Assembly (NCBI GenBank): GCA_015231405.1
Contig: JADGBR010000005.1
Coordinates: 40,034-104,033 of the forward strand
Direction of reading: 5' to 3'
Source: Candidatus Omnitrophota bacterium
Lineage (GTDB): Bacteria > Omnitrophota > Gorgyraeia > Tantalellales > Tantalellaceae
DNA length: 64,000 bases
Every line of letters begins with the position of its first letter. Within the stretch, counting starts at the first letter, position 1. A model generated the notes under the pieces. It was not told the DNA's origin. It was given only the letters and a program-made list of their open reading frames with translations, and did no database searches. This document shows positions 31,321-64,000 of the stretch, piece after piece. The translations under genes and the position numbers were made by a program.

Positions 31321-31336
31321 ATTTATCGTTTAAAAT

Positions 31337-31464: not shown

Positions 31465-31468
31465 TCTA

Positions 31469-35490: not shown

Positions 35491-35586
35491 ATTTGTTGCC
35501 CGTTGTCAGTTGCCCGTTGCCGGTTAATGTTGGTTCCCGTTCACTGCGAACAGGCAACAGGCAACCGACAACTGACAACAAACTTC
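35491..35586. repeat. family C palindromic repeat (second copy)
   Basis: atttgttgcccgttgtcagttgcccgttgccggttaatg...gcgaacaggcaacaggcaaccgacaactgacaacaaacttc; fills the glmU stop to prs SD gap. Confidence 0.7.
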
Positions 35587-37865: not shown

Positions 37866-37975
37866 CTGGAATCCAGAAGCCAGAATCCAGAAGCCAGAAT
37901 TCAGAATCCAGAAGCCAGAATTCAGAATCGTTGGAAGGCCATTCACATTATTCTGGATTCTATATTCTGGCTTCT
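37866..37975. repeat. family A palindromic repeat (second copy)
   Basis: ggaatccagaagccagaatccagaagccagaattcagaatccagaagccagaattcagaatc ... attattctggattctatattctggcttc; lies between the ispE stop and the spoVG start. Confidence 0.7.
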
Positions 37976-38862: not shown

Positions 38863-38932
38863 CCCGTCATTGTGAGCGAAGCGATCTCTATATGGACTGC
38901 TTCGGGCACTTCGTGCCCCCGCAATGACGATC
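38863..38932. repeat. family D palindromic repeat
   Basis: cccgtcattgtgagcgaagcgatctctatatggactgcttcgggcacttcgtgcccccgcaatgacgatc; outer stem cgtcattg/caatgacg. Confidence 0.7.
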
Positions 38933-39907: not shown

Positions 39908-39951
39908 TTATTTTATTATCGCATAAATCCTGAGTCGCAATGACGTAGCAC

Positions 39952-42659: not shown

Positions 42660-42740
42660 CGTCATTGCGAGCGAAGCGAAGCAATCTCTCCGATATCATG
42701 TGGATTGCTTCGTCGGCCTCAGGCCTCCTCGCAATGACGG
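42660..42740. repeat. family D palindromic repeat
   Basis: cgtcattgcgagcgaagcgaagcaatctctccgatatcatgtggattgcttcgtcggcctcaggcctcctcgcaatgacgg; 11-bp outer stem gtcattgcgag/ctcgcaatgac. Confidence 0.7.
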
Positions 42741-45320: not shown

Positions 45321-45348
45321 TTATTTCCTCCTGTTTGATTACCAAATG

Positions 45349-45418
45349 TTAACGTGGGACGTAGGATGTGGGACGTGGGACGTGCATAGCAACTTAAAAC
45401 GTCCTACGTCCTACGGAA
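45349..45418. repeat. family B GC-rich hairpin repeat (gtaggacgtgggacg...cgtcctac), intergenic copy 3' of hisG
   Basis: ttaacgtgggacgtaggatgtgggacgtgggacgtg...acgtcctacgtcctacgg. Confidence 0.75.
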
Positions 45419-45422
45419 CCCG

Positions 45423-46301
45423 TTAATATATCACTTTATTGAGCGGATACTCGATTATCCCTTCCGCCCCCGCCGACTTAAGCGCCGGGATCAGTTTCCT
45501 CACATCTTCCTCGTCTATGATGGTCTCCACGTCGAACCATCCGCCGCCGTATAACGGGGCGACGGTCGGTTTATTGAGCGCGGGAAGCATCTTGACGATC
45601 TTTTCAATATCTTTTTCCCGCACGTTCATCTTGAGACCCACCTTATTCTCAGCCAAAATAGCTCCTTTTAGGAGCATAGCTATCCTGTCTATCTTTTCCT
45701 TTTTCCAGGGATCGCCGTACGCCCCCTTGTTAGCGATAAGACGCGTCGTGGACTGGCATATCTCATCTATTATCTTGAGGTCGTTAGCCCGGAGACTCGA
45801 ACCCGTCTCGGTTATTTCCACTATGGCGTCTATCCCCATTTTGGGTTTCACTTCGGTCGCGCCCCAGCTGAACTCGACCTCGGCTTTCACTCCTTTCGAG
45901 GCCAGATATTTTTTTGTCACGTTGACAAGCTCAGTGGCGACCCTTTTACCCTGGAGCTCTTTTACGCTGTTAATGCCCGAAGCGTTCGGAACGGCGAGCA
46001 CCCAGCGGACGGGTTTCAAACTCTGTTTGGCATACATCAGTTCCGCCACGTTCACGACTACCGAAGCGTTCTCCTCTATCCAGTCCTGCCCGGTTATACC
46101 GCAGTCTATGAGCCCGTCCTCGACATAACGCGACATCTCCTGTGCCCGGAGAAGCACCGTCTCGATCTCATCGTCGTTAATACTGGGAAAATACGACCTG
46201 GAAGATACCCGCACCTTATATCCCGCCTTCTCGAATATCCTGATAGTGGACTCCTCAAGGCTCCCCTTGGGTATACCTAATTTCAGCTTATTAACAGACA
46301 T
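45423..46301 (-). CDS. hisG: ATP phosphoribosyltransferase, long form (with C-terminal regulatory domain)
   Basis: [26 protein letters not shown]...[17 protein letters not shown]...; 292 aa fits HisG-long; no other his genes in the window. Confidence 0.85.
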
Positions 46302-46445
46302 AAATACCCCTTGTTATGAGCACTTACAACGCGTCTTCAATACAGATATTAAGACGGGACAATTGTATACTATTGGGTATGGATAGTCAATAGCGACCGG
46401 CGTGGCATTTTAAACATCACCGTTTTCTTTGAACCCCGATTCCAT

Positions 46446-46500
46446 GTTAACGTAGGACGTGGGACGTGAGGACGTCCCACATCCTACGTCCTACGTTAAA
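46446..46500. repeat. family B hairpin repeat, intergenic copy immediately 3' of the giant gene stop
   Basis: gttaacgtaggacgtgggacgtgaggacgtcccacatcctacgtcctacgttaa. Confidence 0.75.
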
Positions 46501-46507
46501 TGTGATA

Positions 46508-49500
46508 CTACGCTCTAGACAGTATCTGGTGCCTGTATATCAGGTAATTCGCGTACATCTCCGTATCCAAGAGTACCGCCGGGGTGTAGAGGTCGAGCCA
46601 GGCGGCGTTCTTCCATTTTTCTCCGTCTTTCGCGGCTGAGGCCCTCATGCCTACGAGGCGGGTCAATAGATCGCCGAAACGGTATACTCCGAGGACATTG
46701 TCGTTCATCACTATGACGGGGACTTTAACCTTGTATGTGAGTTTGGCTTTCGCCCAGTTGATGCCGTTCGCGCGGATAATGCCGAGGATATTCTCGGGTT
46801 TATATTGCGCTTCTCCTCCCTTCCTCGCGGCCGAGTTCAATACCTTTATAAGCGTCTCGACCTCGGTGTTCAGGTCTTTGTACGGATCGTTGTCTATGGC
46901 GGTGAAAAGTTTCGGGTGTTCCCATTTCTTTAACGCGACTATTTCGACGCCCGGAGCGGCGCGGCCGATGATCGCGGCGAGCTTATCGGCTTCGGCTCCT
47001 TTTTCGGCATAGCGTTTTTCGTCGCGGGAGTAGAGGATGATCTTCCCGCCGGAGAGAATGTTCTTCTCTTTAACCATATCGTTTATGGAGTTTTCAAGCT
47101 CGTCAAATCGGACGGCGTTGTCGAGTATATCCTCGGCGTAAATGATGAGCGATCTCGGCGTCCCGGCTTCGAGCCCTGAGGCCAGACCGGCGAGATCCGC
47201 TTCAGCCTCTCCCTGTGTTTTACCCAAATGACCTTCCGCGTAAGAAACGAATCTCGAGGCCCTTTCGTCATACTCCGCCGCGGTCGTCTCCGCCGTTCCC
47301 GCCATGACGCGCGTCACGGCTTTTATCGTCGCCGGGGACTGTTTCTCAATTATTTTTACTATATCCCTGAACCATTCAAACCCGCCGAATACCGGCATAG
47401 CCGCGGCCATAACTTTCGCGGCGGCGTCGATGTACGCGGCCCGCCTGACGATGAGGAGCCGCGCCACTGCGTCCGCAAGCTCCTTCGTGACAACCGGCCC
47501 TTTCTCCCTGGGTTTCATGCTGTCGCGTATACCCTCACGCCTTTTCCTGAGCTCCGCGATCTTCGCGCCATTACCCGCCGAGTCCGGACCGGCGGCGATC
47601 TCTTCTATTTCTCGATCGATAGCGAGGATCTGGTTGTATTTTTCTTTCGCCGCCCGGAGGATTTCCAACTTCTTGTCGATATCCGGTGTTCCATGGGACG
47701 TGGGATATATCCCGTGGGACGTAGGACGTGGGATGTGGGACGTCCTACGTTCCACGGAACCAGGCTCGGGAAATTGCAAACTCTCCACATCGAACAAAAG
47801 CCGCGACACGCTCCCGTCGCCCTCGTTCAGCGCGAAAAGCCTGTCTCCGGAATACCAGAGATGTGACGGTCCGTCGAAACCACCAAGCCCGCGGGGGATG
47901 ATGCCGAGCACCTTACTCTCTTTGAGGTCGTAGACCGTAACCTCGTCCGTATCAAGCCCCGCTATAAACAATTTATTACCAACAACTTCCATCCCGGCCG
48001 GAGCAGCAACGGGAATACTCTCGATCTTCTTTCCGGCCGATCCTGTGAGATATATCCTTGTCACCATATCATTCTGGAGATCTGAGACAAGCAAGCTGAA
48101 GCTTTCCGCATCGAAACAGATCCTGTCGGCGTCACGGAGATCGACCGTTGTTCGTTTTATGAAACCGTTGTGCCAGGAATTATTATTATCGCTCCGAAGG
48201 CTCCCTCCTTTCAAATTCACGACAGTAATGTATGCCCCTTCAGTTATATCGCCTTTGTTGAGGACGTAAAGCCCGTCTCCTCCGATCGCGAGCCCGACCG
48301 GGTTTTTGAACCAATCCTTCCCCGCGCCTATTATCCCATTTATCCCGTTCTCACTGTAATCGGGATCGGGAGCCCAGAAGCCAGGGGCAGCGCTGAGAGA
48401 ATACCGATATACCTTTATCGTATTATCCCCTTTATCGGCAATAAAGAACCTGATATAACCGCTCCCCTGAATAATAGCCATGCCGGCGGGTTCTTTAACA
48501 TGGTTAGGCTCGGGCCAGCCGGTGGCGGTATTACTCCCGTCAAGGTAAAGTACCGTTTCATTCCCGTGGAGGGAGAACCTGGAGATCTCTATCGCTTTTT
48601 TATGATCCGACCCGTGGTCATCCGTTAACACGGCCGTGTAGTTTATATCTCCAACGGTGAAAGGCGCTACACCAAGAGCCGGCTTCCCCTCAGAAACCAC
48701 GGTATCCCTCTGATACCTGGGAACTACCCCGGAAATATTCAATTCTTCAGGTTCCGTATCTATAACCGTCCCTGAACCAGGATTAGAAACGATCACCCGG
48801 GTGCCAAAAGGCATTTCAGCCGCCCTTATGGTATGATATGCCCCGGAAGGAGGTTCCATTTTCCCAAACTTCAGCGCTTTTTCGTCCGTTTTGGACATAG
48901 TCTCATCAAAGGTGTATACCGACCCGTCGCTGTTAAGGACCATGAACCCGACCTGCCCCGGATTGACCGCCACGCTCACGGGATAGTTATTCAGCCACGG
49001 ATCGCCTTGTGATCTGGCGCTTTTCGTTATGGAGAACACTCCATTCCTGGCCAACCTGTAAATACGGTTCTCTGTCGACCCTTTTCCCGCGGAAATAACG
49101 ACCAGGAGCTCTTCGCCTTTTACCGCCATATCCACGATCCGGACTTTATCCTTCCCGACAACCTGCACATCCAATGTGTCCTTTAGCTCTTCCTTGAAAT
49201 CGGATGCCGGAACGAGCCCCATATCCGTTTTAACGATCCTATTGTCATCGCCTGAGATGAAATACAGTCTGCCCCCGTCTTCATCCGGATCATAAATTAT
49301 CCTGTCGAATTTATCGATACCTGGCACCCTCTTGATCTCATAGTCACCCTTTATAAGCTTTATCTTTCTACCTTCAACTATCTTATAGTCCGGCACGGGA
49401 TTATCGTTAAAATAGAATTTGCGGACCAGACCGTCATCCCCGGCGACATACAAGCGCCCGCCATTGTCCATAACTACACCGCGGGGAGAGACGATCCTCT

Positions 49501-52500
49501 TGCCGTCCTCACTTAAGATCACGAACGACCCGTTGTCGCCCATATCGGGGATCAGGTTCCAGTCCCTGCTGTACACCTGTATCTCTTTAGCCTCGCGGTT
49601 CACGACCCAGATGCGGCCTTCGTTGTCGATGGTCATGTCGGAGGGATCGGGTAATCTTGGTAACGTAGGACGTGGGACGTGGGACGTGGGACGTCCTACG
49701 GAACTTAGCGATTTAAGCTGGTCAATGTCGGTGATGTCGAAGAGGGATCTTGAGATGGTACCGTCGGCGGTGTTGCCGGCGAGGAGACGGTTATCGGAGA
49801 GGTCCAGGAATTGGAGGCCGCTAAAACCGCCGGCCGAGGCGGGGATGACGGCGAGGATCTCGCCGCTTAATATATCGATCACGTGAACACTGTCCGATCC
49901 CGTGCTCGCCGCGTACAGCGCCTTATTCTTAACGAAAATATCGTAAGGCTTATCTACGGGATAATGCGTGATCCTTTGGCTCATTTCCACGCCTTCAACA
50001 AGGGATATACGGGTCACTACGTTCTTCGACCGGCTGGAGACGAAAATGCTGTGGCTCTCAGAATCATAGAAAAGCCTGTCCGGATCTTCCATAGCGCCGG
50101 GTATGTCGGTCAACTCAATATGCCCTTTATGCCAGCATCCGGCCGCATCCGCCCAGGTACTCCCGAAATAGTCGATGGCCGATATGAACGGCCGGCCGCC
50201 GGGGTTCTTGTTCAGGAGATACCATCCGGAATTAGTGGTTACCCGGCCATGAACGATGTCGGTTACACCGGCCACTAGTCGATTCCCTCCGGTAATAATA
50301 CCGTTTTTATTCCCGAACCGATCATCCGGCATGAGCACCCCGGAATTCACAACCCACTTGAACACTTTTACCGTATCATCGGCTTTATCGGTTATTAAAA
50401 AAAGATGCAGACCCTGGTCGTTGTCGTAAATAATATCCATACCACCCGGGATACCTACACTATTGAGCGACAATTTAGTCGGTTCAGGCCCTTTCCCGTT
50501 TTCGGGATATAACTCTACCCTACATCCCTCATCCCCGGATCTTTCCTTTAAACACGCCACCCAACGCACAGCACCCGGCGTATCGTTGAATTTCAACCGT
50601 TTCATATCTACCATATCGCCGGTTATGCCTTTGACCGTTTTCCTGTATTTAGGCAGAATTCCAGTTACGCCCGGTACCCCCAGGACTGAACCTATCACCG
50701 CGCCCGGGTCCGAATGAGAGACGACGACCCTCTGTGGTCCGGAGGTCGTATCCAAGAACCTTATGGAACGGGTGCCCTCGAACGTGTCGGACTGGGCGGA
50801 ATAGCCGGGGTCCACGGCGCTGTAATCGTCAGGAACAGTGCTCTTATGGGCCATATCTTTATCGAGGATAAAGACTGACCCGTCCGAATTAAGCACGGCT
50901 AAAAATGCCCCGTTTGGATCGGGAGTTACGCTTAACGGATAGCAATTTGAATTCCACAGGGGATCAGAAAATGTTATCAGCCGCCCGTCTTTCGTCATCT
51001 TACAGAGCATGTTCCTGACCCCGGGCGTCACCCCAGCAACAAGCGCGTACAGGCTGTCACCCATTACGGCCATATCCGCTACTTTAACCCTGCGATCGGG
51101 GCCTGTGCCGTAGAAACGCGCGATGATATCGGTTATGTCATTCAAAAATCCGCCATCGACGGTCATGGCCAAATTTGTCTTCACTATCTTATTGCTGCCG
51201 TTATCGATAAAATATAACTTTCCTCCGTCCTCGTCCGGGTCATAGATGATCCTGTCGGCTTTGGTGATGCCCGGGATCGCGACCCCTTCTATCCAACCCC
51301 TGAATACCCTTACATCTTTTCCGTCAATATTCATTTTTTTAGGTGTTTTGGGATCGGGATCAGTGTGGAGACTGAATTTTTGGACCTTCCCGTCGCTTAC
51401 GGAAACATACAAATACTCTTCGCCGCCGTCTATCACTACGGCGAGGCTGTGCGGTTTAAGGATATGCCTTATCCCCTGGCCGGTCGAGAAGACCACAATC
51501 GTCCCGTCATTGGCGAAACCTTTCGTAGGTTCCCAGTTGCTGTCATAGACATTGATCTCCCATGTATCGTTATTGATGACCCAGATGCGGCCTTTCGAGT
51601 CGACGGTCATGTCGCCGGGGTTCGGCTTTCCGTTGGACGTGGGACGTGGGATGTGGGACGTCCTACGTCCTACGTCCAACGTCCCACGGGACATCGCCGG
51701 CCACTTGATCACCGGCGTTTCAGGCTCATTCTTACAGAAGACACAAAGGCTGCCGTCGCCCGATATGTCCATAGTCACGGGATCGATGAATCCGTCGTCG
51801 GTAATTATGCCGTTCTTACCGAAACGCGTATCGATCCTGCCGAACCTGTCCAGGGCCATAACGCGGTTATCCTGCTTATCCCACAAAAAGATATGGCCCG
51901 TCAGGCGGTTTATCCTTAGGAGTTCGACCTTTCCGAAAGTATCGATCCCGGCATAACGCGCGTCGGCGTGGCCTATACCGTTAAAACCGAAATCCTTATT
52001 CAAGAGGCCGAATTCGTTGAGCGAAAGGACCATCCTGGACTCGCCTGTCTGGTCAAGCCGCCCGAACAGGTAGAAATTGCCGTCAGAATCGACGTCGAAA
52101 GAAGAGACAGCGACGAACCTCGCGCCGAAATGATCCTCGAGATATTTCTTTTCCGCCATGCGTTTTATGAAAGTGCCGTCGGGCGAGAATTTTGATATCA
52201 TGCATGGGTCGGTGTTCTCGGAACGTCTTGTATCGAGTATATAGATGAACCCCTTATCATCCACGGCAAGCGCGTCCGGGCCCTTTATCTCGGGCGAACC
52301 CGGCGCGTCCTTCAAAGGGATCTTATTTAATTTCCCGTTAAGCCCGATCAATATGAGGGCGCCACCCGCATCCAGGACCGCGAGCCCCTTGCCGTCTGGC
52401 AATACCCTTATATCATTAACGCCGAAAATACTTATCGCGCTGAAGTTAAACTCGCTGTCATGGTTAAAAGCCATATTCGGCTCACCGTTGGGCTTTGTAC

Positions 52501-55500: not shown

Positions 55501-58500
55501 GGACCTCGCCGTAAGTATCCAGCCCGGAGTACCTCGCGTGGGCAAAAGCCCGTTCTTTCCCGCCGAAATCCTTATTTACCCGTCCGAATTCGTCGAACGA
55601 TACGATGATCTTCGGCTGGCCGGTCCACGCTTCACCCATGACAAAAAAGTTCCCGTCGGCGTCAATGTCGAAGACTGAAGCCTGAAAACGCGCGTTCTGA
55701 CCAAGATATCCGTCAAGCTCATTTTTGTCGCAGAAAGCCCTCAAAAATTTCCCGTTGGGCGAGTATTTGTATATCCGATATTCACCCGGCGCACCTGTCC
55801 CTTTTTCAGGGTCCATAACATAAATGAACCCATTACCGTCTATGGCCAACTTGCCCGGTTTTTGTATCTCTTCCGAATGGTCCACGCTCCCGTCAAGCTT
55901 CAGGAATACCAGATGCCCGTTTTCCAGAACTATGAGGTTTTTCCCGTCGGCCGACAATTTGAGATCCAGAATGCCCTCCCGGCCACGCTCGATCTCGCCC
56001 GTGACTCCAAAATCCGTGTTCGGACCTCCGCCAGGCAAAGAGCTTCTAATTATATGCTTCATGGAATCTACATTGTATAAAGAGACATAAATATTCCCGT
56101 CATAGTCGACCGTCCCGCGGGCGAACAATTCTTTATCGTTCTTCCTGCTGTTAAAAGCGGCGGTCGCGTGGACGAAAGGTTTTGCCTGAACGATATATTC
56201 CCGCGGTAACAGCTCAAGGCCTGTCTCTAAACCGGTCACGTACAGATCACCTTTGTTATTAAGCCCGATACAGAACGGCATGTCAAAATCGCCGTATATT
56301 TTTCCGGCGTAGCCGAAACTCTCAAGGAGGACACATACCTTCCCGTCGAGGCTCAGCCCGAACACTCCCACAAAACCCTCTTCGTACGCGGCGAAAACTC
56401 TCCCTTCGCTGTCGACAGCGAGACGGCGTGGCGAGATCCCGTAGTCGTTAAGGTTGAACGTCTCGATCGGCTGGCCGGTATCTGAAAACAGCTCCAGCCT
56501 GCCGTCATTTGACAGTAGGCAGATCTTCCCGTCACGCGGGTCGACAGCCACATCCTTCTGATCGTCTAAAGGAGAAAAATCAGATATCATTATGCCTGTA
56601 TCGGCGTTAAATATCTTCACCTGGTCCAAGGACTCATTTGTAAGAACATAGATCTTCCTCCGCGCCTCGTCTACGGCTATGGCTTTTACCCCTTCCTGAT
56701 GCCCTTGGAGCGACCCGTTTTTATCGGGCCCGAAATCGGCGTCAAGTTCCTGCCCGGAATTGAAAGCCATAACGCTTTTGGAAGCCGGGTGGTACGTGAA
56801 ATACCTTTTATTCTTTCCATCGGCCGCGCAAGGATTAAGTGCGAATATCGTCTGATCCTCGCCCAGAACGGCGAAATATATTTCCTTCGCGGGCGGATCA
56901 AAATCTCTGATCCTTCTCGGCGAAAAAGAGATATCTCTCAAGTCCCTGAGAACGGGATCAGATTTTTCTCCCGGCGTGACGGCAGGGCGCTCGCCCAGCG
57001 ATTCCAAAGGTACCATCGAAATGGTATGGTCGCCGGCGTTGATGACGTAAAGATCGTGAAAACTGTCCCATGAGGAATTCGCGGCTAAACCGGCGGGTTC
57101 ATTAAAAGCTCCGGCTGACGGGGGTATGACGAAATAATCCTTACCGGAATTGTCCTGGAGGACTGCCAAAGAGCCCGTATCTCCGTTAAGGACGGCTGTC
57201 CGCCCTTCACCTATAGCCTTCACGCTGACGGGATTATTGAAATACCCAGGTTTCATTTCCAGGACGTCGCCGTTAAGCGCCATGGCGCTGACCGCACCTG
57301 TGGCCGAGTTGGTTAAGATCAAAGCGTTTCCGTTCCAGGTGATGCTATCCATAGCGAGCGCCGGGTCATTGTCGGCTATTTTTATGACCGAGCCAAGCAA
57401 AATGCTTACCGCCGGTTCGAGCTCACCTTCGATAACACGAACGAAATATTTATCCTTGTCCTTTTCTTTGCATAAGACCATTATCGCAAACCCATTATCC
57501 TTTTTATAGATCGTGACTCCCAGCGGGATCTCTTCTTTCTCTAGAGGGATAACCCCGCTACCTGAGCACCTCGTATCAAGTTCGCCCTTCATGGTATAAA
57601 CTTTAATCGACGGTTTTACCGTGGCGTCTCCCGCGTCCGGGACGAAGATATTCATCGTTTTGCCTCCGTCCAGCGTGTCTATGACGAGATCGCGCGGGTC
57701 GATGAGCGGATGACCCTTGTCATGCGCCACGTTTACGACCTTGAACTTGTCGCCGTCATGTTTCTCCCGAGCCAGTTTCTTCACCTTTTTATCGGCGCGG
57801 TCTATGGTCCAGAGTGCGCCTTCGTGATCCATATCGAGCTTGAATGGTTCCCTAACCCCTTCGAACGGTATCTTGAGATAACCCGGCGCGTAGCCCTTTA
57901 TCCTGAAAGTGCCGCCGTCGGCTACGGTGATAATATCGTTCTTACCTTGCTCGCCGACAAAAAGTATATCGCCGTTCCGGTCCCCGGACATGGTACCGAA
58001 AGACCGGCCGGAAAACCTTGTTTCCGATATTTTTTTCCACGAACTGGTATCAATGACGGTTACCCTCGCGACCCGTTCCGTGCCTGATATTTCTTCGCTA
58101 TCAAGCACGACCAGGTTATTGTTTTGATCATGCATGATGTCCAGCGGGAAATCAAACCCGTAACTCTCGCCATGAACCAAGGTTGTAGCGGCATATTTGC
58201 CGGTGTTCTTATTATATATGCTTATCTGCCGGTCCCCGATCGACGCGAGGATCAGCTTACCTTCCGCGCCGTCCTGAACGCAAAAACTAAATCCAGACCC
58301 GAACGTTTTGATCATCTTGGCATCGGTCGGCCCCACGAAATCTGGATCGAGCCCCCCGTCGACAAACTCCTTCAAAACGACGGCGAATCCGCTGTTTGTC
58401 ACCAAAAGCCAATATATTTTATCCTGGTCATCCGTGGTAATATCTATCACTTTCGACAGCCGTTCCCCGGGTCCAAGAGAGTCGGGTACCGTTATTTCCC

Positions 58501-61500
58501 TATCCACCTCTTTCGCTCCGGAGGCGTATCTTACAACCTTATGTTCCTTATAAGAGACCAAGAGCCTGTTGTGCCGGTCGACGGTGAAAGCCCATATTGC
58601 TCGCCTTTTCCCCGTATCTCCGTCCGACATGAACACCTTTCCGTCCGCGCCGATATTCTTATTTACGCGCCAGTTCTCATCGTAGACCACGATCTCGTTC
58701 GTGGCGCCGTTCAGGACGTAACGGTTGCCGTCAGTGTCGGTCTTGACGCGGCGGATGTCCTTGAGGCGATAGGTATCGTAGGTCGAAGGTGGAAGGTCGA
58801 TGGTGGAAGGCCCCTCTTCCCCCTTTCCTTGCCTGCCCGCCGTAGCCTTGGCGAAGGCGGGACCCTTGACCCCTGACCCTTGCCCCTTAGACATCGCCCT
58901 ATCCACCACGTCCCACGTTATCTCAGTCGTTTTCCAGTCGGAAGTGGCAGCACTGAGGCGGCCTGTATCGTCGATGTCAAGTTTTACCGCCTGGGCCAGT
59001 TTATCATCGTATATCGTTCCGTTCACGCCGAAACGCGTGTCTAAGTAACCGTAGCGGTCGAGGACGGTTATTCCTTCTATAGTGAGAAGGCATATGTGCC
59101 CGGTGCGGCGGTTGACCTTAATATCCTTTATCCCTCCAAATGGGTGGGTATCACTGAAATATGCCGTAATACCCGCGATAATACCCATATTCCCCAGGTC
59201 CTTGTTAAGCTCTCCTCGTTCGTTGAACGCTATTAACACATCCTTAGTCTTTTCTACAATAAAGATATTCCCTTCATCATCGATATCGATAGCATGTATG
59301 TTGGGTCTTACGGGAAGCAATAATCGTTGCGATATCTCATTGAACAGCGTTTTTTCACCTATGTGTCTTATGAACTTCCCTTGAGGGCTGAACTTGCTTA
59401 TCAGGGGGAACTCCGCTCCACCGTTCGTAACATAGATATACCCGAATTTATCGACGGCGATATTCCGCGGCTCGGACATGTAAACGGCCAGATCCTCATC
59501 GAGCGGAACGGACTCTTTGTCCGGATCTTTTTGCCCGTCTAAGGTATAGAAATCTATGCCGGCATCGGTCATAACTATCTTATTCTTCCCATCCGCCGAC
59601 ATGACCGTATTGGGCATAGAGTCGACTGAAGACCTTTGAGCCATCTTGTGAGCGAACTTTTCAGGACGGATATGCGTCCGCGGCAAGATCACCAGGCCGG
59701 CTATGTCTTCAGAGGAAATATACAGATCGCCTTTATCGTTGAAACCGATATCGTAAGGCTTGCCGAAACCGCCCGTTATTACGCCCCCCTTACCATAAGA
59801 TGGATCCGGTTGTTTTGTGTCGGGATCTATGAAGACTATAGCCCCCGAGCCGAATGCTACGGCTATTCTGCCTTCGAGGTCGACAGCCACTGAGACTGGA
59901 TCCGTATGCCCCAGGTTGGGTAAGAAAATCGGTCCGCCCACCGCCGCTTTGGCGTTATACCAGCCTATTCTATCCTCATAGAGATCGTAATACTTGCCCT
60001 CTTTTCCGGAGGCTATATCCCTTATGCCTATGGAGTGCGGGAACCTGCCGATGAACCCACCCGTATCGAGATGGTATCTGTATACCGCGTTGTTCGAGCA
60101 GAGAACATATAATAGTCTTTCACCCTCGTCCACCGTCATGGATAGGGGTTCATGATCAGGTTGTTGAAGTTTGAGAATACCGTCACCATCGGGACCGAAA
60201 GCAGTATCAGGCCGCAAGTCGCTTTTCAGCGCGAATATTTTGCCTTTCTCGTCGGCGACGAAAACGCGGCCGGTCTTCCTGTCCTCGGCCATGCATGATG
60301 GTCTATTGATATCCAGGCTGACGAAATCGGGCGCCGATGTTCCTCGGCCTATGGCTAATTCTAATTTTCCGGAAGGAGCAAAGACCTTCACGACATTACC
60401 GGTTATCGACATGATATGCCCGTCTCGCCGGACGATGAATTTTTCTTTTTTGACCGCACGGTTGTCTTTATCGGCTATCCGTTTCGGGAGGACGCGTTGC
60501 CTTAGTTGCCGGAGTTCGGGGTTGGCCTTCTCTTCCTGAGACATAACAGGCCGTAACTCAGCCGCGCCCAGAGGCACCATATAGACCGCTTTTTCTTCGG
60601 GACTAAGGATGACTAGATCGGGACTCGCCGTACCGCTCCTAGTGCCCGGATATAAGGCTACCCCGCCCGGGACATATTTCCCCGACGGAAGCGGGAAGAT
60701 ACCGTCAGGTAAAGGCCCGTTGTCGCGATGTAATACCATCGATGTTCTATCCCTTCCCAAATAGCACATATGGTCTTCGAAGGGGACCATCCCGATAGGT
60801 TCGTCAAGACGTTCCGGCATAACTGTCCGGAATGGGACACCCGCCCCGGAGTAATTAAACTCTTCCTTTACGGTCCTTATGATCTTCCTCACGGGATCGA
60901 CGAATAAGTTCCCGGGTGCGTCTTTCTTAATATCAAGGCCCGATATCCTGCTCCCGCTGGGAAATGTAAGGTCGGGCTCGCAGTTACTGTTAAGGACCTG
61001 GATATACGGAGCGCCTCCTTCCTCACCAAGACAAAGGACAAATATCCTGTGGTCTACCTCCCCATCCACGGCCACGGAGACTGGGCGTTTAAACCAACCC
61101 ATCCCCTTACCTATAATACCGCCGGGGCCGAACCTGGTTTCCGGTTCACCGTTCATATCGAACACTTTTATATCATTGTCACCCATGTCAGGAACAAAAA
61201 TATTATCGTCAAGGCCGCTGTTGAAAGAGGCGATAACGACATCGGCCGGGTCATTGAAAGAGCCGAACTCTTTAACTACCGTGAATCCAGCGCTGTCATG
61301 CTTTTCCCTTATCAGCTTTTTAACTTTTTTGTCGGACTTATCGATAGTGTAAAGAGCATTATCCCGGTCCATGGCCAGCTTCCACGGTTCTTTTACTCCC
61401 TCTATGGCTATTTTCAAGTACCCCGGGGCATATCCTTTCAAGAGGTGAGTATCGCCGTCAATGACCCATACAATATCGCTACCGTTCTCCGCTATAAGGA

Positions 61501-64000
61501 TATCACCGTCATCGTCGACGCTTATTTTACGGTCCGCACCCGCCTTTATTCTTATACCTATATCACCGAATTTTATCGCCCCGAGATAAGCCCCGCTCGT
61601 ACGGTCGACTATAGTTATGCCCTCCTTCTTCTCTTCACTGCCGAGAAGCAAGAGCCGCCCGTGCTTCTCGAGGGCTATGCCGGTCAAATATCTATGATCG
61701 GCAGCGCCAGGCAGGGACTCATCCCGCGATGCCCTGACTTTATCAAGCGCCTTTACCTCTTCCCCATTAACAATATAGTAGACATTACCATTTTCACCGT
61801 TCTCAACCGTAAAGTCGACGACCCCTTCACCTATATCGCAATAACCTATGCCCAAAAAAGCAAGGTCCCTAAGATCGTCTTTCCCGGTTTTTACTAAATA
61901 ATATCTTTTAGGACCGGACCAATCAGGGGCATAGGCATGTTCAAAAAGATAATATAGGCACCCCTGATCATCCGCCTTCATTTCGATGAGCCCGCCCAAC
62001 GCCACTATGCCCGAGTACATCCCATAGACAGGTATAGTAACCGGTCCGCCTTCGCCTTTACTCCTGTATTTCACCGCTCCAACGTCCTCATAGAATACGA
62101 CAGGGGTGTCATTATTGCTTATAGTTACCGCCTTTATCTTCAGCCTTTCGCCGCTACTCTCGATGAATATCCGCCCGTTCTCGCCTATCGCCGGGTTTAT
62201 TACCCAGTTCTTGTCGTACACGATTATCTCGTTCGCGCCTTTGTTCAGGACGTATTTGTTGCCTTTAGCGTCGCTCTTGACATGGCCTATGTCGGTGATC
62301 CTGTATGTATCGTCCGACGTCCCACGTCCTACGTCCCACGTCCTACGTTCAACGTCTGACGTCCTACGTCCTACGTCCAACGTCCCACGGAAACCAGTTT
62401 GCCCCTTCTCAACTTCCGCCAGATACACCCCGTATTCCACCCCCGCCAACTCTTTGAGCGTCGCCAAATGATCTGCCGCAGCTTCAATGCTTTCCGAACT
62501 CACCGGCTTTGGCCTAGGCGGCAGTACCGGCTCGACCGGTCCGGCCCGTACGGGCTCGACTCGCTTTCTCATCCACTCGACCGGCTCGAGGCGCATCTCC
62601 TGGCGGGCTACTCTGCCATCGGGCATGACGAACGCCATATTCCCCGCTCCGGTGATAAAATCTCCCGCATCGGGGACTCTCCCATTATCCACTTCCAAAT
62701 ATCCGCCTTCGCCTATACCCTCGTCGAGTTTCCCGGTATGGGGATCAACGACCGCCGCCCTTCGCCCGTTTTTATCGAAAAATATCAACCTGTTCATCTC
62801 GCGGTCAAATGCCGCCTGAGCGGCGTTAACGCCGAATTTAGAGTCGCTGAAACTCGCCACCTCATGGGCCCTATTATTTTCAATATCGATATTAGCTAAC
62901 ACATCGACCGCCAGAAGCCCTTCTCCCAAAGGCGAAGTATGCGCGTAAACTACTGAGAGTTCGTCATTTTCGCCGAAAAATATCTTTCTCGCCGAGGTAG
63001 AAACTATCCCTTTCGCGTTTGCCATATTTTTCCAAACCGGCGAATATTTCACCGGCGCCGTCGGCTCGCGCCATATCTCAAATATGCCGTTTTCCAGGAG
63101 TACGAATATCTCGCCCCTTGAATTGACATCCATTGATATCCCTTTACAATTACCTCCGCGGGCCCTGATCGTCCCCTTATCGGCCGTGACGGTATCCAGG
63201 GACCCGTCGGGATTAAAGAAATAAACGATATTCTCGGTGGCCGTGGCGCAAAGGACCAGGATCTTGATACCTGTCCCGGTATCGGGCATTACTGCCATGG
63301 CCTTCACTTCCTGCATGTAAAAATGCACATCCTGAGTCTCCCCTGGAAGCCGGAATGTTACCCTCCCGTCCGGAGCGCCGATAAAGTTACGGACTACGGT
63401 GCCGTCAGTCATTATCTTGTTAATGAAATACAGAGCGGTCCCGGCGACAGGAGGCGCGGCTGACTTTTCGGCGAAATAGATATTTCCTTCATTGTCGGTC
63501 GCTTTGAACGTCGGCTCCAGGTATTGATCTTTGGTAACGGTCACTTCGGGTTTATTGATAAGCGGTATCGTAACCCGGCTTTCGGACGCTTCGTCCGTGA
63601 CTATGAGCCCGCCTTCTTTATCGAATTTTATGTCGATGGGCGTTGTTATGCCGAATTCTTTAAGGTCTATCTCTCCGTCATCCGCGAAATCCGTATCGGA
63701 GGTGCCGTCGGGCCTGTATATGAGAAGGATGTTCTTTTCTTTCGAGGCCAGGAATATCCTTTTAGAATAGAGGTCGACGGCTATCGAGAACTCTGTGCCG
63801 TATTTTCTGTCGATCTTGATCGCACCCATTTTTGATCCCGACGTGCTGAACGGGACCATCCTTTCATTCTTGTCCATCCTGACAAGATACGCGCCGTCGG
63901 CGTTGGAGCACATGACAAGGATATTTTCATTCACATCCAGCGCCATATCTCCGGGCGCGACCAGAGCGAGCTGGCCAAAACTTGCGGCAACGCTTTCTAT
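46508..64000 (-). CDS. giant NHL/beta-propeller-repeat protein, 5'-partial (more than 5830 aa; the ORF stays open to the window edge), built of tandem paralogous modules
   Basis: Uninterrupted minus-strand ORF; the frame remains open upstream of the first Met (…LALVAPGD-MALDV…) through position 64000; repeated ...GxIYVxD.../NHL-like blades; five paralogous modules separated by in-frame hairpin linkers. Confidence 0.85.
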   Translation of the reverse strand: MESVAASFGQLALVAPGDMALDVNENILVMCSNADGAYLVRMDKNERMVPFSTSGSKMGAIKIDRKYGTEFSIAVDLYSKRIFLASKEKNILLIYRPDGTSDTDFADDGEIDLKEFGITTPIDIKFDKEGGLIVTDEASESRVTIPLINKPEVTVTKDQYLEPTFKATDNEGNIYFAEKSAAPPVAGTALYFINKIMTDGTVVRNFIGAPDGRVTFRLPGETQDVHFYMQEVKAMAVMPDTGTGIKILVLCATATENIVYFFNPDGSLDTVTADKGTIRARGGNCKGISMDVNSRGEIFVLLENGIFEIWREPTAPVKYSPVWKNMANAKGIVSTSARKIFFGENDELSVVYAHTSPLGEGLLAVDVLANIDIENNRAHEVASFSDSKFGVNAAQAAFDREMNRLIFFDKNGRRAAVVDPHTGKLDEGIGEGGYLEVDNGRVPDAGDFITGAGNMAFVMPDGRVARQEMRLEPVEWMRKRVEPVRAGPVEPVLPPRPKPVSSESIEAAADHLATLKELAGVEYGVYLAEVEKGQTGFRGTLDVGRRTSDVERRTWDVGRGTSDDTYRITDIGHVKSDAKGNKYVLNKGANEIIVYDKNWVINPAIGENGRIFIESSGERLKIKAVTISNNDTPVVFYEDVGAVKYRSKGEGGPVTIPVYGMYSGIVALGGLIEMKADDQGCLYYLFEHAYAPDWSGPKRYYLVKTGKDDLRDLAFLGIGYCDIGEGVVDFTVENGENGNVYYIVNGEEVKALDKVRASRDESLPGAADHRYLTGIALEKHGRLLLLGSEEKKEGITIVDRTSGAYLGAIKFGDIGIRIKAGADRKISVDDDGDILIAENGSDIVWVIDGDTHLLKGYAPGYLKIAIEGVKEPWKLAMDRDNALYTIDKSDKKVKKLIREKHDSAGFTVVKEFGSFNDPADVVIASFNSGLDDNIFVPDMGDNDIKVFDMNGEPETRFGPGGIIGKGMGWFKRPVSVAVDGEVDHRIFVLCLGEEGGAPYIQVLNSNCEPDLTFPSGSRISGLDIKKDAPGNLFVDPVRKIIRTVKEEFNYSGAGVPFRTVMPERLDEPIGMVPFEDHMCYLGRDRTSMVLHRDNGPLPDGIFPLPSGKYVPGGVALYPGTRSGTASPDLVILSPEEKAVYMVPLGAAELRPVMSQEEKANPELRQLRQRVLPKRIADKDNRAVKKEKFIVRRDGHIMSITGNVVKVFAPSGKLELAIGRGTSAPDFVSLDINRPSCMAEDRKTGRVFVADEKGKIFALKSDLRPDTAFGPDGDGILKLQQPDHEPLSMTVDEGERLLYVLCSNNAVYRYHLDTGGFIGRFPHSIGIRDIASGKEGKYYDLYEDRIGWYNAKAAVGGPIFLPNLGHTDPVSVAVDLEGRIAVAFGSGAIVFIDPDTKQPDPSYGKGGVITGGFGKPYDIGFNDKGDLYISSEDIAGLVILPRTHIRPEKFAHKMAQRSSVDSMPNTVMSADGKNKIVMTDAGIDFYTLDGQKDPDKESVPLDEDLAVYMSEPRNIAVDKFGYIYVTNGGAEFPLISKFSPQGKFIRHIGEKTLFNEISQRLLLPVRPNIHAIDIDDEGNIFIVEKTKDVLIAFNERGELNKDLGNMGIIAGITAYFSDTHPFGGIKDIKVNRRTGHICLLTIEGITVLDRYGYLDTRFGVNGTIYDDKLAQAVKLDIDDTGRLSAATSDWKTTEITWDVVDRAMSKGQGSGVKGPAFAKATAGRQGKGEEGPSTIDLPPSTYDTYRLKDIRRVKTDTDGNRYVLNGATNEIVVYDENWRVNKNIGADGKVFMSDGDTGKRRAIWAFTVDRHNRLLVSYKEHKVVRYASGAKEVDREITVPDSLGPGERLSKVIDITTDDQDKIYWLLVTNSGFAVVLKEFVDGGLDPDFVGPTDAKMIKTFGSGFSFCVQDGAEGKLILASIGDRQISIYNKNTGKYAATTLVHGESYGFDFPLDIMHDQNNNLVVLDSEEISGTERVARVTVIDTSSWKKISETRFSGRSFGTMSGDRNGDILFVGEQGKNDIITVADGGTFRIKGYAPGYLKIPFEGVREPFKLDMDHEGALWTIDRADKKVKKLAREKHDGDKFKVVNVAHDKGHPLIDPRDLVIDTLDGGKTMNIFVPDAGDATVKPSIKVYTMKGELDTRCSGSGVIPLEKEEIPLGVTIYKKDNGFAIMVLCKEKDKDKYFVRVIEGELEPAVSILLGSVIKIADNDPALAMDSITWNGNALILTNSATGAVSAMALNGDVLEMKPGYFNNPVSVKAIGEGRTAVLNGDTGSLAVLQDNSGKDYFVIPPSAGAFNEPAGLAANSSWDSFHDLYVINAGDHTISMVPLESLGERPAVTPGEKSDPVLRDLRDISFSPRRIRDFDPPAKEIYFAVLGEDQTIFALNPCAADGKNKRYFTYHPASKSVMAFNSGQELDADFGPDKNGSLQGHQEGVKAIAVDEARRKIYVLTNESLDQVKIFNADTGIMISDFSPLDDQKDVAVDPRDGKICLLSNDGRLELFSDTGQPIETFNLNDYGISPRRLAVDSEGRVFAAYEEGFVGVFGLSLDGKVCVLLESFGYAGKIYGDFDMPFCIGLNNKGDLYVTGLETGLELLPREYIVQAKPFVHATAAFNSRKNDKELFARGTVDYDGNIYVSLYNVDSMKHIIRSSLPGGGPNTDFGVTGEIERGREGILDLKLSADGKNLIVLENGHLVFLKLDGSVDHSEEIQKPGKLAIDGNGFIYVMDPEKGTGAPGEYRIYKYSPNGKFLRAFCDKNELDGYLGQNARFQASVFDIDADGNFFVMGEAWTGQPKIIVSFDEFGRVNKDFGGKERAFAHARYSGLDTYGEVHKLTINRATGHMFLIDREGNVGSGRVEDNRLICLTRDGRLDTRFGGNGIIKDAKFGRVQDTYISAKGELWVFTDGDAHNAVKLTWEGTEGLGHGAEGQKLRGTLDVGRRTSDEGRVTSHVPHPTSYDTYRLTGLGRVKTGLDGNRYVLNGAGNEIVVYDANWRVNTSMGSNGRVFMPKGNAGERHKIEAFALDRKNRLIVYYEEYKGVRYEPGAKKKDIILPGLNRPKFDVKEVMDIAVDDMGSVYWLVRVKDDENEEFMSVVKCSEDGQKDPDFNGPAGNGNFGRVSSLWSFCVEDGANGNLYLAGAVSNEILVFDKNTGKKATPAERLEGVNLGFENHMDIILDKNMNLLILNSFQPDPDKHSERVNRITVIDPRQAKPIRTVSLSPRNLYSLSLDSNGDILVTDFDDNIVYAVDSDTYSIKGYAPGYLKIPFEGVREPFKLDMDDKGALWTIDLADKKLKRLERAGHDGDVFKVTAEVSDDGHPFIDPRDLVIDTVDEGATMNIFVPDAGDGDVKVFDMNGKLDTRFAGSGVISLPDDEIPLGVAVKADNDGTKPAIFVLCKKKELEFHQIYVFNGDGSPYNDFPLGQIMCIGSNDPNLAMDGITYDQVTRHLHLTNSANGSYFKVNIDNFDRDSHPAEFNAPKSIKYLTDGRIAVLNGENGSLALTDGSGISVIPPSAGGFDKPSGFAANADFDPFHDLYVINAGDHTISMVPYGVMGMRPLLTPGEKTSPDLKALRDTAITPKRIREYAPGRKKQNFVVTDKGNIELTNFFCAYDNKRGKFYEESFPVDIDEEGAMKYTLKDPKHLDQYEIASGTHIPNILKAPCKDITVRQNDGTIYLLGENGKLMALSRDKTWLGEWDLNPHGRDPSRLGVDHEGNIFVAYDAGYIVVFDPIAPTLTVNKNFGLSGKIYGNFDKPYCIRLNKKGDLYVTGENTGLELLPREYIRPVIPFKHVPQAIKNGKKGDEVLAAGTVDADGNIYEVWVETRAGGRSVIRSTKPNGEPNMAFNHDSEFNFSAISIFGVNDIRVLPDGKGLAVLDAGGALILIGLNGKLNKIPLKDAPGSPEIKGPDALAVDDKGFIYILDTRRSENTDPCMISKFSPDGTFIKRMAEKKYLEDHFGARFVAVSSFDVDSDGNFYLFGRLDQTGESRMVLSLNEFGLLNKDFGFNGIGHADARYAGIDTFGKVELLRINRLTGHIFLWDKQDNRVMALDRFGRIDTRFGKNGIITDDGFIDPVTMDISGDGSLCVFCKNEPETPVIKWPAMSRGTLDVGRRTSHIPRPTSNGKPNPGDMTVDSKGRIWVINNDTWEINVYDSNWEPTKGFANDGTIVVFSTGQGIRHILKPHSLAVVIDGGEEYLYVSVSDGKVQKFSLHTDPDPKTPKKMNIDGKDVRVFRGWIEGVAIPGITKADRIIYDPDEDGGKLYFIDNGSNKIVKTNLAMTVDGGFLNDITDIIARFYGTGPDRRVKVADMAVMGDSLYALVAGVTPGVRNMLCKMTKDGRLITFSDPLWNSNCYPLSVTPDPNGAFLAVLNSDGSVFILDKDMAHKSTVPDDYSAVDPGYSAQSDTFEGTRSIRFLDTTSGPQRVVVSHSDPGAVIGSVLGVPGVTGILPKYRKTVKGITGDMVDMKRLKFNDTPGAVRWVACLKERSGDEGCRVELYPENGKGPEPTKLSLNSVGIPGGMDIIYDNDQGLHLFLITDKADDTVKVFKWVVNSGVLMPDDRFGNKNGIITGGNRLVAGVTDIVHGRVTTNSGWYLLNKNPGGRPFISAIDYFGSTWADAAGCWHKGHIELTDIPGAMEDPDRLFYDSESHSIFVSSRSKNVVTRISLVEGVEMSQRITHYPVDKPYDIFVKNKALYAASTGSDSVHVIDILSGEILAVIPASAGGFSGLQFLDLSDNRLLAGNTADGTISRSLFDITDIDQLKSLSSVGRPTSHVPRPTLPRLPDPSDMTIDNEGRIWVVNREAKEIQVYSRDWNLIPDMGDNGSFVILSEDGKRIVSPRGVVMDNGGRLYVAGDDGLVRKFYFNDNPVPDYKIVEGRKIKLIKGDYEIKRVPGIDKFDRIIYDPDEDGGRLYFISGDDNRIVKTDMGLVPASDFKEELKDTLDVQVVGKDKVRIVDMAVKGEELLVVISAGKGSTENRIYRLARNGVFSITKSARSQGDPWLNNYPVSVAVNPGQVGFMVLNSDGSVYTFDETMSKTDEKALKFGKMEPPSGAYHTIRAAEMPFGTRVIVSNPGSGTVIDTEPEELNISGVVPRYQRDTVVSEGKPALGVAPFTVGDINYTAVLTDDHGSDHKKAIEISRFSLHGNETVLYLDGSNTATGWPEPNHVKEPAGMAIIQGSGYIRFFIADKGDNTIKVYRYSLSAAPGFWAPDPDYSENGINGIIGAGKDWFKNPVGLAIGGDGLYVLNKGDITEGAYITVVNLKGGSLRSDNNNSWHNGFIKRTTVDLRDADRICFDAESFSLLVSDLQNDMVTRIYLTGSAGKKIESIPVAAPAGMEVVGNKLFIAGLDTDEVTVYDLKESKVLGIIPRGLGGFDGPSHLWYSGDRLFALNEGDGSVSRLLFDVESLQFPEPGSVERRTSHIPRPTSHGIYPTSHGTPDIDKKLEILRAAKEKYNQILAIDREIEEIAAGPDSAGNGAKIAELRKRREGIRDSMKPREKGPVVTKELADAVARLLIVRRAAYIDAAAKVMAAAMPVFGGFEWFRDIVKIIEKQSPATIKAVTRVMAGTAETTAAEYDERASRFVSYAEGHLGKTQGEAEADLAGLASGLEAGTPRSLIIYAEDILDNAVRFDELENSINDMVKEKNILSGGKIILYSRDEKRYAEKGAEADKLAAIIGRAAPGVEIVALKKWEHPKLFTAIDNDPYKDLNTEVETLIKVLNSAARKGGEAQYKPENILGIIRANGINWAKAKLTYKVKVPVIVMNDNVLGVYRFGDLLTRLVGMRASAAKDGEKWKNAAWLDLYTPAVLLDTEMYANYLIYRHQILSRA
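47690..47758. repeat. family B hairpin repeat in frame within the giant gene (linker VERRTSHIPRPTSHGIYPTSHGT)
   Basis: ccatgggacgtgggatatatcccgtgggacgtaggacgtgggatgtgggacgtcctacgttccacgg. Confidence 0.8.
49662..49702. repeat. family B hairpin repeat in frame within the giant gene (linker SSVGRPTSHVPRPT)
   Basis: aacgtaggacgtgggacgtgggacgtgggacgtcctacgg, a near-perfect 10-bp stem. Confidence 0.8.
51631..51690. repeat. family B hairpin repeat in frame within the giant gene (linker GTLDVGRRTSHIPRPTSNG)
   Basis: cgttggacgtgggacgtgggatgtgggacgtcctacgtcctacgtccaacgtcccacggg. Confidence 0.8.
55122..55206. repeat. family B hairpin repeat in frame within the giant gene (linker GTLDVGRRTSDEGRVTSHVPHPTS)
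   Basis: atcgtaggacgtgggatgtgggacgtgggacgttacacgtccttcatccgacgtcctacgtcctacgtccaacgtcccacgtaac. Confidence 0.8.
58775..58870. repeat. degenerate module-junction linker (direct repeats ggtggaagg / gacccttgacccctgaccc) at the position where other junctions carry the family B hairpin
   Basis: atcgtaggtcgaaggtggaaggtcgatggtggaagg ... gacccttgacccctgacccttgcccc encodes ...GQGSGVKGPAFAKATAGRQGKGEEGPSTIDLPPSTYDTYRL. Confidence 0.5.
62311..62390. repeat. family B hairpin repeat read in frame within the giant gene (module linker ...GTLDVGRRTSDVERRTWDVGRGTSDD...)
   Basis: cgtccgacgtcccacgtcctacgtcccacgtcctacgttcaacgtctgacgtcctacgtcctacgtccaacgtcccacgg. Confidence 0.8.

Follow-up and report, generated by a model that had tools for sequence, protein, structure and literature searches.

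We analyzed a 64,000-nt stretch of contig JADGBR010000005.1 (assembly GCA_015231405.1; "the window"), which comes from a bacterium of the Candidatus Omnitrophota. We found a family of hairpins that are built from tandem heptamers and that lie both at the ends of genes and within a giant gene. In this gene, which we call giant gene B, heptamer arrays are translated in frame and stand at every junction between paralogous modules. The explanation that we favor, and think probable, is that these are REP-like 3'-end hairpins, and that the copies in giant gene B are translated as a tolerated, disordered linker.

Under this explanation, the usual place of the element would be at or just after a stop codon, both here and in several metagenome-assembled genomes (MAGs) of Omnitrophota. 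At the module junctions of giant gene B, the same family of DNA would simply be translated, which would give a disordered linker that is rich in Gly, Arg, Thr, Ser, and Pro. Every reading frame would yield one low-complexity heptapeptide, and selection would remove the units that create TAG and would keep the length in frame. The arrays would evolve apart from the modules, by slippage, by inversion of an arm or template switching, by replacement, and by local homogenization or spread. A preliminary description of this window had proposed a REP-like DNA repeat that is both non-coding and a translated linker between modules, and our results support that proposal.

The heptamer repeat

The repeat unit is the heptamer GT(A/G)GGA(C/T), arranged head to tail every 7 nt, as seen with Tandem Repeats Finder (TRF) and by direct reading of the sites. 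In most copies, the GTRGGAY array is followed by an inverted array of GTCC(C/T)AC, so the stem of the hairpin is itself made of repeats. Because the junctions between units (...AC-GT...) are palindromic, the direct and inverted arrays keep one register.

A search of the window for GTAGGACGTGGGACG with at most two mismatches gave 33 matches, all between 45361 and 62388, while 0.08 were expected from shuffled sequences. Similarly, the 22-mer GTRGGAYx3 has 12 matches in the window and none is expected. This family, which we call family B, has seven copies within 17 kb: two lie 3' of stop codons (of hisG and of the giant gene) and five are in the giant ORF (open reading frame). Such clustering within 17 kb of the window has P ~0.002. 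The preliminary description had reported these seven sites, including the two in non-coding DNA, and we confirm them all.

Period 7 is also common in the rest of the window. It accounts for 22 of the 38 TRF arrays, and a strict scan found six arrays of period 7 and none of periods 5, 6, or 8–12. There are at least four families of heptamer units in the window. Heptamer loci are found at five intergenic and six in-gene sites, and all six of the latter are within one giant gene. The copy number over the period-7 arrays at all sites is 2.4–11.3, and 9 of the 11 arrays form an inverted-array hairpin. Three of the intergenic hairpins, as well as one of the module boundaries, which has heptamers from another family, are additions to the preliminary description.

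Heptamer arrays at the module boundaries of giant gene B

Giant gene B and its parts are as follows. The module map is from self-BLAST of the protein in 400-residue chunks.

46508–63946, minus strand: giant ORF B (from the ORF list), at least 5,812 codons, 17.4 kb
N-terminal region: aa 1–518
Module I: aa 519–1690
Module II: aa 1692–2913
Module III: aa 2915–4087
Module IV: aa 4087–4748
Module V: aa 4750–5396
C-terminal region: from aa 5396

The frame has no stop codon from the first ATG (63946) to the edge of the window (64000), and the gene may be longer. The modules had been described as paralogous beta-propellers, which agrees with the self-BLAST and with the NHL beta-propeller repeats that they carry. 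Each of the five opens with its linker, followed by ~80 homologous amino acids.

Six heptamer arrays were found in this gene:

62308–62392, minus strand: in-frame array at the module I start, with 11 heptamers in direct orientation; encodes FRGTLDVGRRTSDVERRTWDVGRGTSDDT (aa 519–547); no long hairpin
58770–58892, minus strand: linker at the I/II junction, in frame, with non-family-B heptamers GAAGGTS/GACCCTT; aa 1685–1726 (58776–58888)
55120–55205, minus strand: family-B hairpin at the II/III junction; encodes KLRGTLDVGRRTSDEGRVTSHVPHPTSYDT (aa 2914–2943); z −5.8
51628–51695, minus strand: family-B hairpin at the III/IV junction; encodes AMSRGTLDVGRRTSHIPRPTSNGK (aa 4084–4107), predicted to be disordered; z −4.6
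49660–49705, minus strand: family-B hairpin at the IV/V junction; encodes SSVGRPTSHVPRPTLP (aa 4748–4763); z −5.5
47690–47760, minus strand: family-B hairpin between module V and the C-terminal region; encodes GSVERRTSHIPRPTSHGIYPTSHG (aa 5396–5419); z −4.8; clamps GGTTCC...GGAAC

The five family-B arrays encode the exact starts of modules I, III, IV, and V and of the C-terminal region. Within giant ORF B, period-7 arrays are found at the six module boundaries and nowhere else. We did not see any empty junctions: all six are occupied, as is the one orthologous junction. The preliminary description had placed the five in-ORF copies at module boundaries, which holds for all five. It had also assigned them all an RRTSHxPRPTS-type peptide, which does not hold for the copy at 62311: this encodes RRTSDVERRTWDVGRGTSD instead. 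All eleven units of this array have one orientation, and it has only weak local ACGT stems. At the I/II junction, the arrays flank a 19-nt palindromic core, GTAGCCTTGGCGAAGGCGG, and there is no significant hairpin (z −0.4).

We modeled aa 3650–4350 with AlphaFold, using an alignment of five sequences. The model has all-beta domains around the III/IV junction. At the junction itself (aa 4085–4110), which is the heptamer-encoded segment, it has no secondary structure and a pLDDT of 25–33, as compared to ~80–86 upstream and ~60 downstream.

Folding of the family-B hairpins

Folded as gene-sense RNA, six of the family-B sites (at 45349, 46446, 47690, 49660, 51628, and 55120) have predicted energies of −21 to −47 kcal/mol (z −4.6 to −8.4). 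The earlier claim that every copy is a hairpin is borne out at these six sites, but not at 62311, which is the direct array. Terminal clamps (GGTTCC...GGAAC(C)) are present in the copy at 47690 and in a locus from another Omnitrophota MAG (L104, see below), and there are partial clamps in other copies. When we compared the window to Rfam at the gathering threshold, no family matched any of the hairpins, and the sole match was tRNA-Gln.

The two arms of family B are asymmetric (45345–55210): read along the plus strand, G is preferred in the purine arm and T in the pyrimidine arm. This implies that the mismatches are G·U in the antisense RNA and A·C in the gene-sense RNA. The antisense RNA is predicted to fold more stably, by 4–12 kcal/mol, at five of the six sites. 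The other heptamer families have the opposite strand bias or none.

These folds bear on the idea that the hairpins within the gene are functional structures, such as pause sites that aid folding, exonuclease barriers or processing sites, or latent terminators. In the sense RNA, strong hairpins are predicted for four of the five family-B linkers (over the range of energies given above), and their positions are just those at which pausing would keep folding units apart. Also, the intergenic copies resemble 3'-end hairpins. But two of the six junctions (I and II) lack a significant hairpin, and the A·C mismatches and the better antisense folds imply that the hairpins are not optimized for the mRNA. 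The orthologous junction, which has a hairpin of a different sequence, fits a functional structure equally well and does not discriminate. Overall, we think that a functional structure is quite unlikely.

Reading frame, peptides, and stop codons

Because 7 is 1 modulo 3, a one-base change of frame is equivalent to stepping along the array by one unit. (GTCCCAC)n encodes the cyclic heptapeptide VPRPTSH in all frames, and (GTGGGAC)n encodes VGRGTWD in all frames. The shared RRTSH(V/I)PRPTS strings are a matter of arithmetic: they arise because the DNA repeat has a 7-nt period. The preliminary description gave as evidence that the copies are always in the same reading frame and that they are conserved at the peptide level. 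The first point is uninformative for a 7-nt period, and the second carries no weight since all frames encode the same cyclic heptapeptide.

The stop codons are more informative. (GTAGGAC)n has one TAG per 21 nt in every frame. Among the 25 in-gene units in the G-rich orientation, seven are in the phase where positions 2–4 form a codon. None of these seven has A at position 3 (three have T, three have C, and one has G), versus 11 of 18 units in the other two phases (hypergeometric p ~0.007). The units that would create TAG have been purged, and only in the stop phase, a pattern that marks a DNA repeat cleared of its stop codons.

The peptides of the linkers are not conserved. In linker I, the 3' arm of linker III is inverted, so that RRTWDVGRGTSD replaces TSHVPHPTSY and the hairpin is lost. 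What the linker peptides have in common is being rich in Gly, Arg, Thr, Ser, and Pro.

We also considered if RRTSHVPRPTS-type linkers are maintained by selection for properties of the protein, with the DNA repeat and the stem as by-products. Their composition is like that of many natural linkers, and they are predicted to be disordered. On the other hand, there are non-coding copies here and in other genomes, inverting an arm changes the peptide completely, and one junction uses an unrelated sequence. Also, diverged modules share exact DNA identity over 32–33 nt (see below), and the 7-nt period on its own explains the similarity of the peptides. We consider a selected peptide to be highly improbable and effectively excluded. 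The preliminary description had named one scenario that would undo its proposal, namely that the element is just a codon string for a peptide linker. The same intergenic copies and arm inversion, together with the purged stop codons and the similarity of the arrays, exclude it. Instead, we infer that the copies within the gene are passengers that are tolerated, or else relics of duplication units that comprised a module and its 3' hairpin.

The arrays and the modules have different histories

The closest paralogs among the modules, II and III, have 72–79% identical DNA immediately after the linker, yet linkers II and III belong to unrelated heptamer families. Conversely, the DNA of module IV is essentially unalignable to that of modules I and III (~45–50% identical), but linkers I, III, and IV share an exact block, CGTGGGACGTTGGACGTAGGACGTAGGACGTC, of 32–33 nt (linker I shares 32 nt with III and 33 nt with IV). 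The C-terminal linker and linker IV have 27 nt in common, and elsewhere in the window, there are two AGAATCC hairpins that are 6.5 kb apart. We relied on exact shared blocks because the global DNA identity of the linkers is affected by their unequal lengths.

The similarity among the arrays far exceeds that of the surrounding coding DNA, which indicates replacement, local homogenization, or spread at the DNA level. This decoupling of arrays from modules is at odds with a model in which each linker was simply inherited along with its module, and also with selection on the peptide. The spread may have occurred by local gene conversion.

These features also raise the possibility that the hairpin arrays are recombination joints that mediate the duplication, deletion, inversion, and exchange of modules, analogous to exon shuffling. 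Every junction has an array, exact blocks of as much as 33 nt are common to several of them, and the arrays are susceptible to slippage, inversion, and template switching, so they would be expected to mediate module exchange. We see this as doubtful. If it is true, then slippage by 7 nt in either direction could also give programmed truncation variants, and stop-adjacent 3' hairpins would be raw material for concatenating giant genes of the Omnitrophota type.

Hairpins at the ends of genes

The five intergenic heptamer hairpins are:

45349–45418, minus strand: family-B hairpin 3' of hisG; −29.6 kcal/mol, z −4.6
46446–46500, minus strand: family-B hairpin after giant gene B, 8 nt past its TAG stop codon; −39.3 kcal/mol, z −8.4
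31334–31470, minus strand: AGAATCC inverted-array hairpin; overlaps the stop codon of an rplI-like ORF, upstream of dnaB; z −4.8
35495–35580, minus strand: GTTGCCC/GTTGTCA inverted-array hairpin, 1 nt past the stop codon of a GlmU-like gene; z −8.2
37869–37984, minus strand: GAATCCA inverted-array hairpin; overlaps the stop codon of an IspE-like gene; z −5.6

These hairpins, as well as a non-repeat hairpin after bamA, start −9 to +8 nt from the upstream stop codon. In several intergenic hairpins, the stop codon is inside the stem. For instance, the ORF beside giant gene B encodes a 292-aa HisG (by its match to Pfam), and its TAA (45423–45425) is part of the outer stem of the hairpin at 45349–45418. 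A promoter scan identified a promoter-like site for hisG at 46390–46362, after the hairpin of giant gene B.

None of the intergenic heptamer hairpins is followed by a T run (which would give a U tract). We rejected the idea that they are canonical Rho-independent terminators because they lack the U tract. A terminator scan also missed them. Canonical terminators are not enriched in the window (29 versus 20.4 ± 4.7). Judging from their sequences and positions, the intergenic copies are most likely the 3'-end hairpins of transcripts, and would act as terminators or as 3' stabilizers without a U tract.

The placement of these hairpins suggests another origin for giant gene B. Tandem paralogous genes, each with a 3' hairpin, might have been fused by the loss of stop codons; equivalently, a module and its 3' hairpin might form a duplication unit that arose by unequal recombination between hairpins. 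The gene's own stop codon has a hairpin of the same family 8 nt downstream, and the stop codons of six genes are in or beside hairpins, where a single substitution would lead to read-through. Also, all of the modules open with a linker and a homologous stretch, and in the only orthologous sequence (described below), the ORF ends in the loop of a hairpin at the III/IV junction. However, there is no remnant of a ribosome binding site, a start codon, or a spacer between hairpin and module; rather, the DTYR... sequence directly follows the array. The arrays are also much younger, or more homogenized, than the modules are, and the stop codon in the orthologous sequence may be due to an indel in the assembly (it is from a 1.7-kb contig, and another frame is open throughout). 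We view the fusion of genes as unlikely but still a serious candidate.

An orthologous junction

In a HMMER search of 1.8 billion representative proteins, we found a single close relative of giant protein B. This protein (P0001) has 496 amino acids, is 76–78% identical, and spans the end of module III. It is encoded by locus L119, a 1.7-kb metagenome contig from JGI (Ga0451520_0158628, from sample 3300042261). A search for homologous proteins with aa 3900–4400 also yielded only P0001, and searches with aa 201–900 and aa 4108–5812 yielded none. Metagenome scans (with a 5,000-aa query and with an alignment of paralogs and the ortholog) did not yield any confirmed relatives.

The similarity between P0001 and giant protein B ends at the III/IV junction. 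At this point (1560–1693), the contig has four GTGCACGG-type octamers, a loop of 45 nt, and three copies of the inverted unit CCCGTGCA, with a predicted folding energy of −63 kcal/mol. As far as these two sequences tell us, a repeat hairpin is conserved in place at the III/IV junction, but not in sequence. The frame that was called for L119 has a TAG in the hairpin loop, and another frame is open through the entire element. The stop codon could be a genuine split or truncation, or it could be due to an indel error in a low-coverage repeat. The L119 unit CACCCGTGCAC has a single match in the window, which is 3' of the other giant gene (giant gene A) and does not form a hairpin. We dropped this as a potential link because it is compatible with chance (42 of 100 shuffles).

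The open frames raise the question of contingency sites. As in a phase-variable contingency locus, the length of the intragenic unit (heptamers, or octamers in L119) is not a multiple of three. Slipped-strand mispairing that adds or removes one unit would shift the frame, truncate the protein, and vary the number of modules. Because an array is open in all frames, only the sequence downstream of it would be affected, and the L119 ORF does end at the junction, while the other frame continues through the hairpin. But the arrays are short (2–5 units per arm) and impure, which lowers the rate of slippage, and typical contingency loci have perfect repeats near the 5' end of the gene. We think that contingency sites are very unlikely.

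Heptamer arrays in other genomes

We scanned one genome per GTDB species for GTRGGAYx3 and found at least 118 loci from many phyla. By these matches, the heptamer as such is not lineage-specific. Among the loci listed, there are 266 arrays with a period of 7 (with 130 different units), versus 39 with a period of 8 and 13 with a period of 6. An inverted partner array was found in 8 of the 118 matches listed.

In Omnitrophota MAGs, hairpins with inverted partners were found at loci L104 and L068 (by a strict criterion) and L065 (with a weaker partner). These hairpins have the termini GGTTCC-GTAGGAC ... GTCCCAC-GGAAC and are 8–20 nt past stop codons. In-frame arrays of the heptamer were found in an AcrB-family transporter from a deltaproteobacterial MAG (L041), where they encode RRTWDVGRRT, and in an alpha-2-macroglobulin from a Bacteroidales MAG (L012).

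We made two other observations in these genomes. First, in L068 (~3140–3175) and L096 (~1510–1590), there are hairpins of this family whose 3' arm is broken by a short GC-rich insert (AAGCGAGCGAAGCGAGC, and a repeat block of CGCTCGGCCG). These inserts resemble small nested repeats. Second, L027, from the uncultured bacterium MFD09779.bin.1.133, has GGTTCCA x5 and then GTCCCAC x9 (2249–2312) in the syntenic gap upstream of dnaB. This is a distant relative (DnaB is 42% identical and SSB is 47% identical); the position of the array is maintained and the units differ.

Several of our observations weigh against the explanation that we favor. First, it is based on 64 kb of one genome plus one short orthologous fragment. 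Second, the same heptamer family, including its termini, is maintained across different Omnitrophota MAGs. This may point to a function or a factor that depends on the sequence, for which a purely neutral view has no explanation. Third, a strong hairpin is maintained at four of the six junctions, so the RNA or DNA structure may have a role within the gene. Finally, two observations concern mobility: we did not see direct repeats (a target-site duplication) flanking the family-B copies, nor did we see a cognate transposase among the subset of window ORFs that we compared to Pfam. The sole transposase among these ORFs is from the IS66 family (23593–24603, plus strand). It is located between the start of giant gene A and lpxI.

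Comparison with known repeats

Heptamer repeats have been described in other bacteria, such as the cyanobacterial STRR-type repeats, GGGAATC in Xanthomonas, and GGGGAYT in Nostoc (PMC4692102), as well as TAACTGA in Beggiatoaceae and cyanobacteria (PMC4679880). For the over-representation of heptamers in bacteria, PMC4692102 cites Mrazek et al. 2007 and the heptamers of Calothrix. Known heptamer repeats are mostly intergenic, with occasional inverted pairs and occasional arrays within ORFs, in the stop-free orientation (PMC4692102, PMC4679880); in Maribeggiatoa, these encode LSVISYQ repeats. A survey of short tandem repeats (PMC12699852) does not discuss heptamers.

The arrays in the window resemble these repeats in having 7-nt tandem units, an excess of period 7, and many unrelated families of units per genome. 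Other similarities are the sites near the ends of genes, the occasional potential to form stem-loops, and the presence of some arrays within ORFs. In contrast to the known repeats, the inverted-array hairpin is the rule in the window (9 of 11 arrays, versus 8 of the 118 foreign matches listed). Furthermore, the hairpins in the window abut stop codons and have conserved clamps, and in one giant gene, all of the module junctions have an in-frame array (six in total).

Like REP, REPIN, and BIME elements, the hairpins are short imperfect palindromes with several near-identical copies, some of which are just 3' of genes, and the family is maintained across related genomes. Those elements are typically transcribed as 3' hairpins of mRNAs, which would be another similarity. 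Unlike them, the stems in the window are tandem heptamers of variable number, and five of the copies are translated.

The Rickettsia palindromic elements (RPEs; Ogata et al. 2000, as reviewed in PMC10969869) are another family of palindromes that is found both in non-coding DNA and in frame within genes, where the peptide is tolerated at permissive positions. However, RPEs are 100–150 bp, are not tandem repeats, are specific to Rickettsia, and are scattered over unrelated genes, while the translated copies in the window are all at module junctions of one gene. There is no sequence relationship between the two. Because heptamer repeats in ORFs (PMC4679880) and in-frame palindromic RPEs (PMC10969869) were already known, it was an overstatement for the preliminary description to call a REP-like element that serves as a linker unusual. 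More broadly, the terminal inverted repeats (at 47690 and in L104) and the six tolerated in-frame copies are reminiscent of insertions of miniature inverted-repeat transposable elements or RPEs. In contrast to those mobile insertions, there are no flanking direct repeats and no empty sites among the junctions that we compared.

PARCELs (PMC2996958) are also coding DNA repeats with dyad symmetry, but they encode a defined amphipathic domain of 25 residues and are not intergenic hairpins adjacent to stop codons. The repeats in Borgs are fast-evolving nucleotide tandem repeats that create disordered protein segments, as the arrays in giant gene B would. As far as the available descriptions of Borg repeats go, they are direct tandem repeats, with no mention of an inverted hairpin arrangement, and they are not also stop-adjacent intergenic hairpins, which sets them apart.

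In the literature on giant genes and Omnitrophota that we searched, the terms linker, tandem repeat, palindrome, and hairpin do not occur. In the literature that we searched, we did not find a description of a stop-adjacent hairpin of inverted heptamers that doubles as every inter-module linker of a giant gene.

Other features of the window

The window also contains another giant ORF:

376–23106, minus strand: giant ORF A, 7,576 codons, with little internal modularity

Giant ORF A does not contain any family-B arrays, there is no significant hairpin after its stop codon, and we did not detect any homology between it and the modules of giant ORF B. Nevertheless, the 19-nt near-palindrome GTAGCCTTGGCGAAGGCGG is found exactly, and in frame, in both giant genes (58842–58860, plus strand, and 4986–5004, minus strand), where none is expected. 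The two copies have opposite orientations relative to the gene. The copy in giant gene B reads PAFAKATAGRQ (in linker II), and the copy in giant gene A reads VVALAKADAPCLAGRQ (at ~aa 6035) and is flanked by (TGGGGCT)3.6 heptamers (5015–5039) and the palindrome CCTGCCTGCCGGCAAGGCAGG.

A second family of REP-like hairpins, GGATTGCTTCGTCGGCCT...CGCAATGACG, is present in intergenic gaps at 23276–23314, 38865–38929, 39936–39945, and 42660–42739. It is built of inverted pairs (CGTCATTGCG.../...CGCAATGACG) and is found 3' of transketolase-like genes and beside the IS66-family ORF. An exact 18-nt match occurs twice in the window, versus 0.05 expected. The motif GTCATTGCGAGCGAC from this family is also present in another Omnitrophota locus (L016).

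Lastly, the window encodes an unusually long homolog of SpoVG (37121–37825, minus strand), with 234 amino acids instead of ~95. The domain has an insertion of ~40 residues (Cys-x2-Cys...Cys-x2-Cys), and the protein has a long low-complexity tail that is rich in Arg and Asp (RDRGRDRARDQSRDHSRNHGRDRGRE).

Implications for giant genes

Bacterial genes of over 5,000 codons have only recently been recognized as an oddity, above all in Omnitrophota, and our results bear on their assembly and on how their frames stay open. A sober reading of our results is that this is another case of selfish or slippage-generated DNA that is tolerated as disordered protein sequence. On the practical side, linkers that are made of heptamers are prone to assembly errors and frameshifts, which can fragment giant genes in MAGs; L119 may be an illustration of this. 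If stop-adjacent hairpins routinely become linkers, then they would be a source of rapid structural variation, and they would also offer a testable route to giant modular genes, through the duplication or fusion of modules together with their hairpins.

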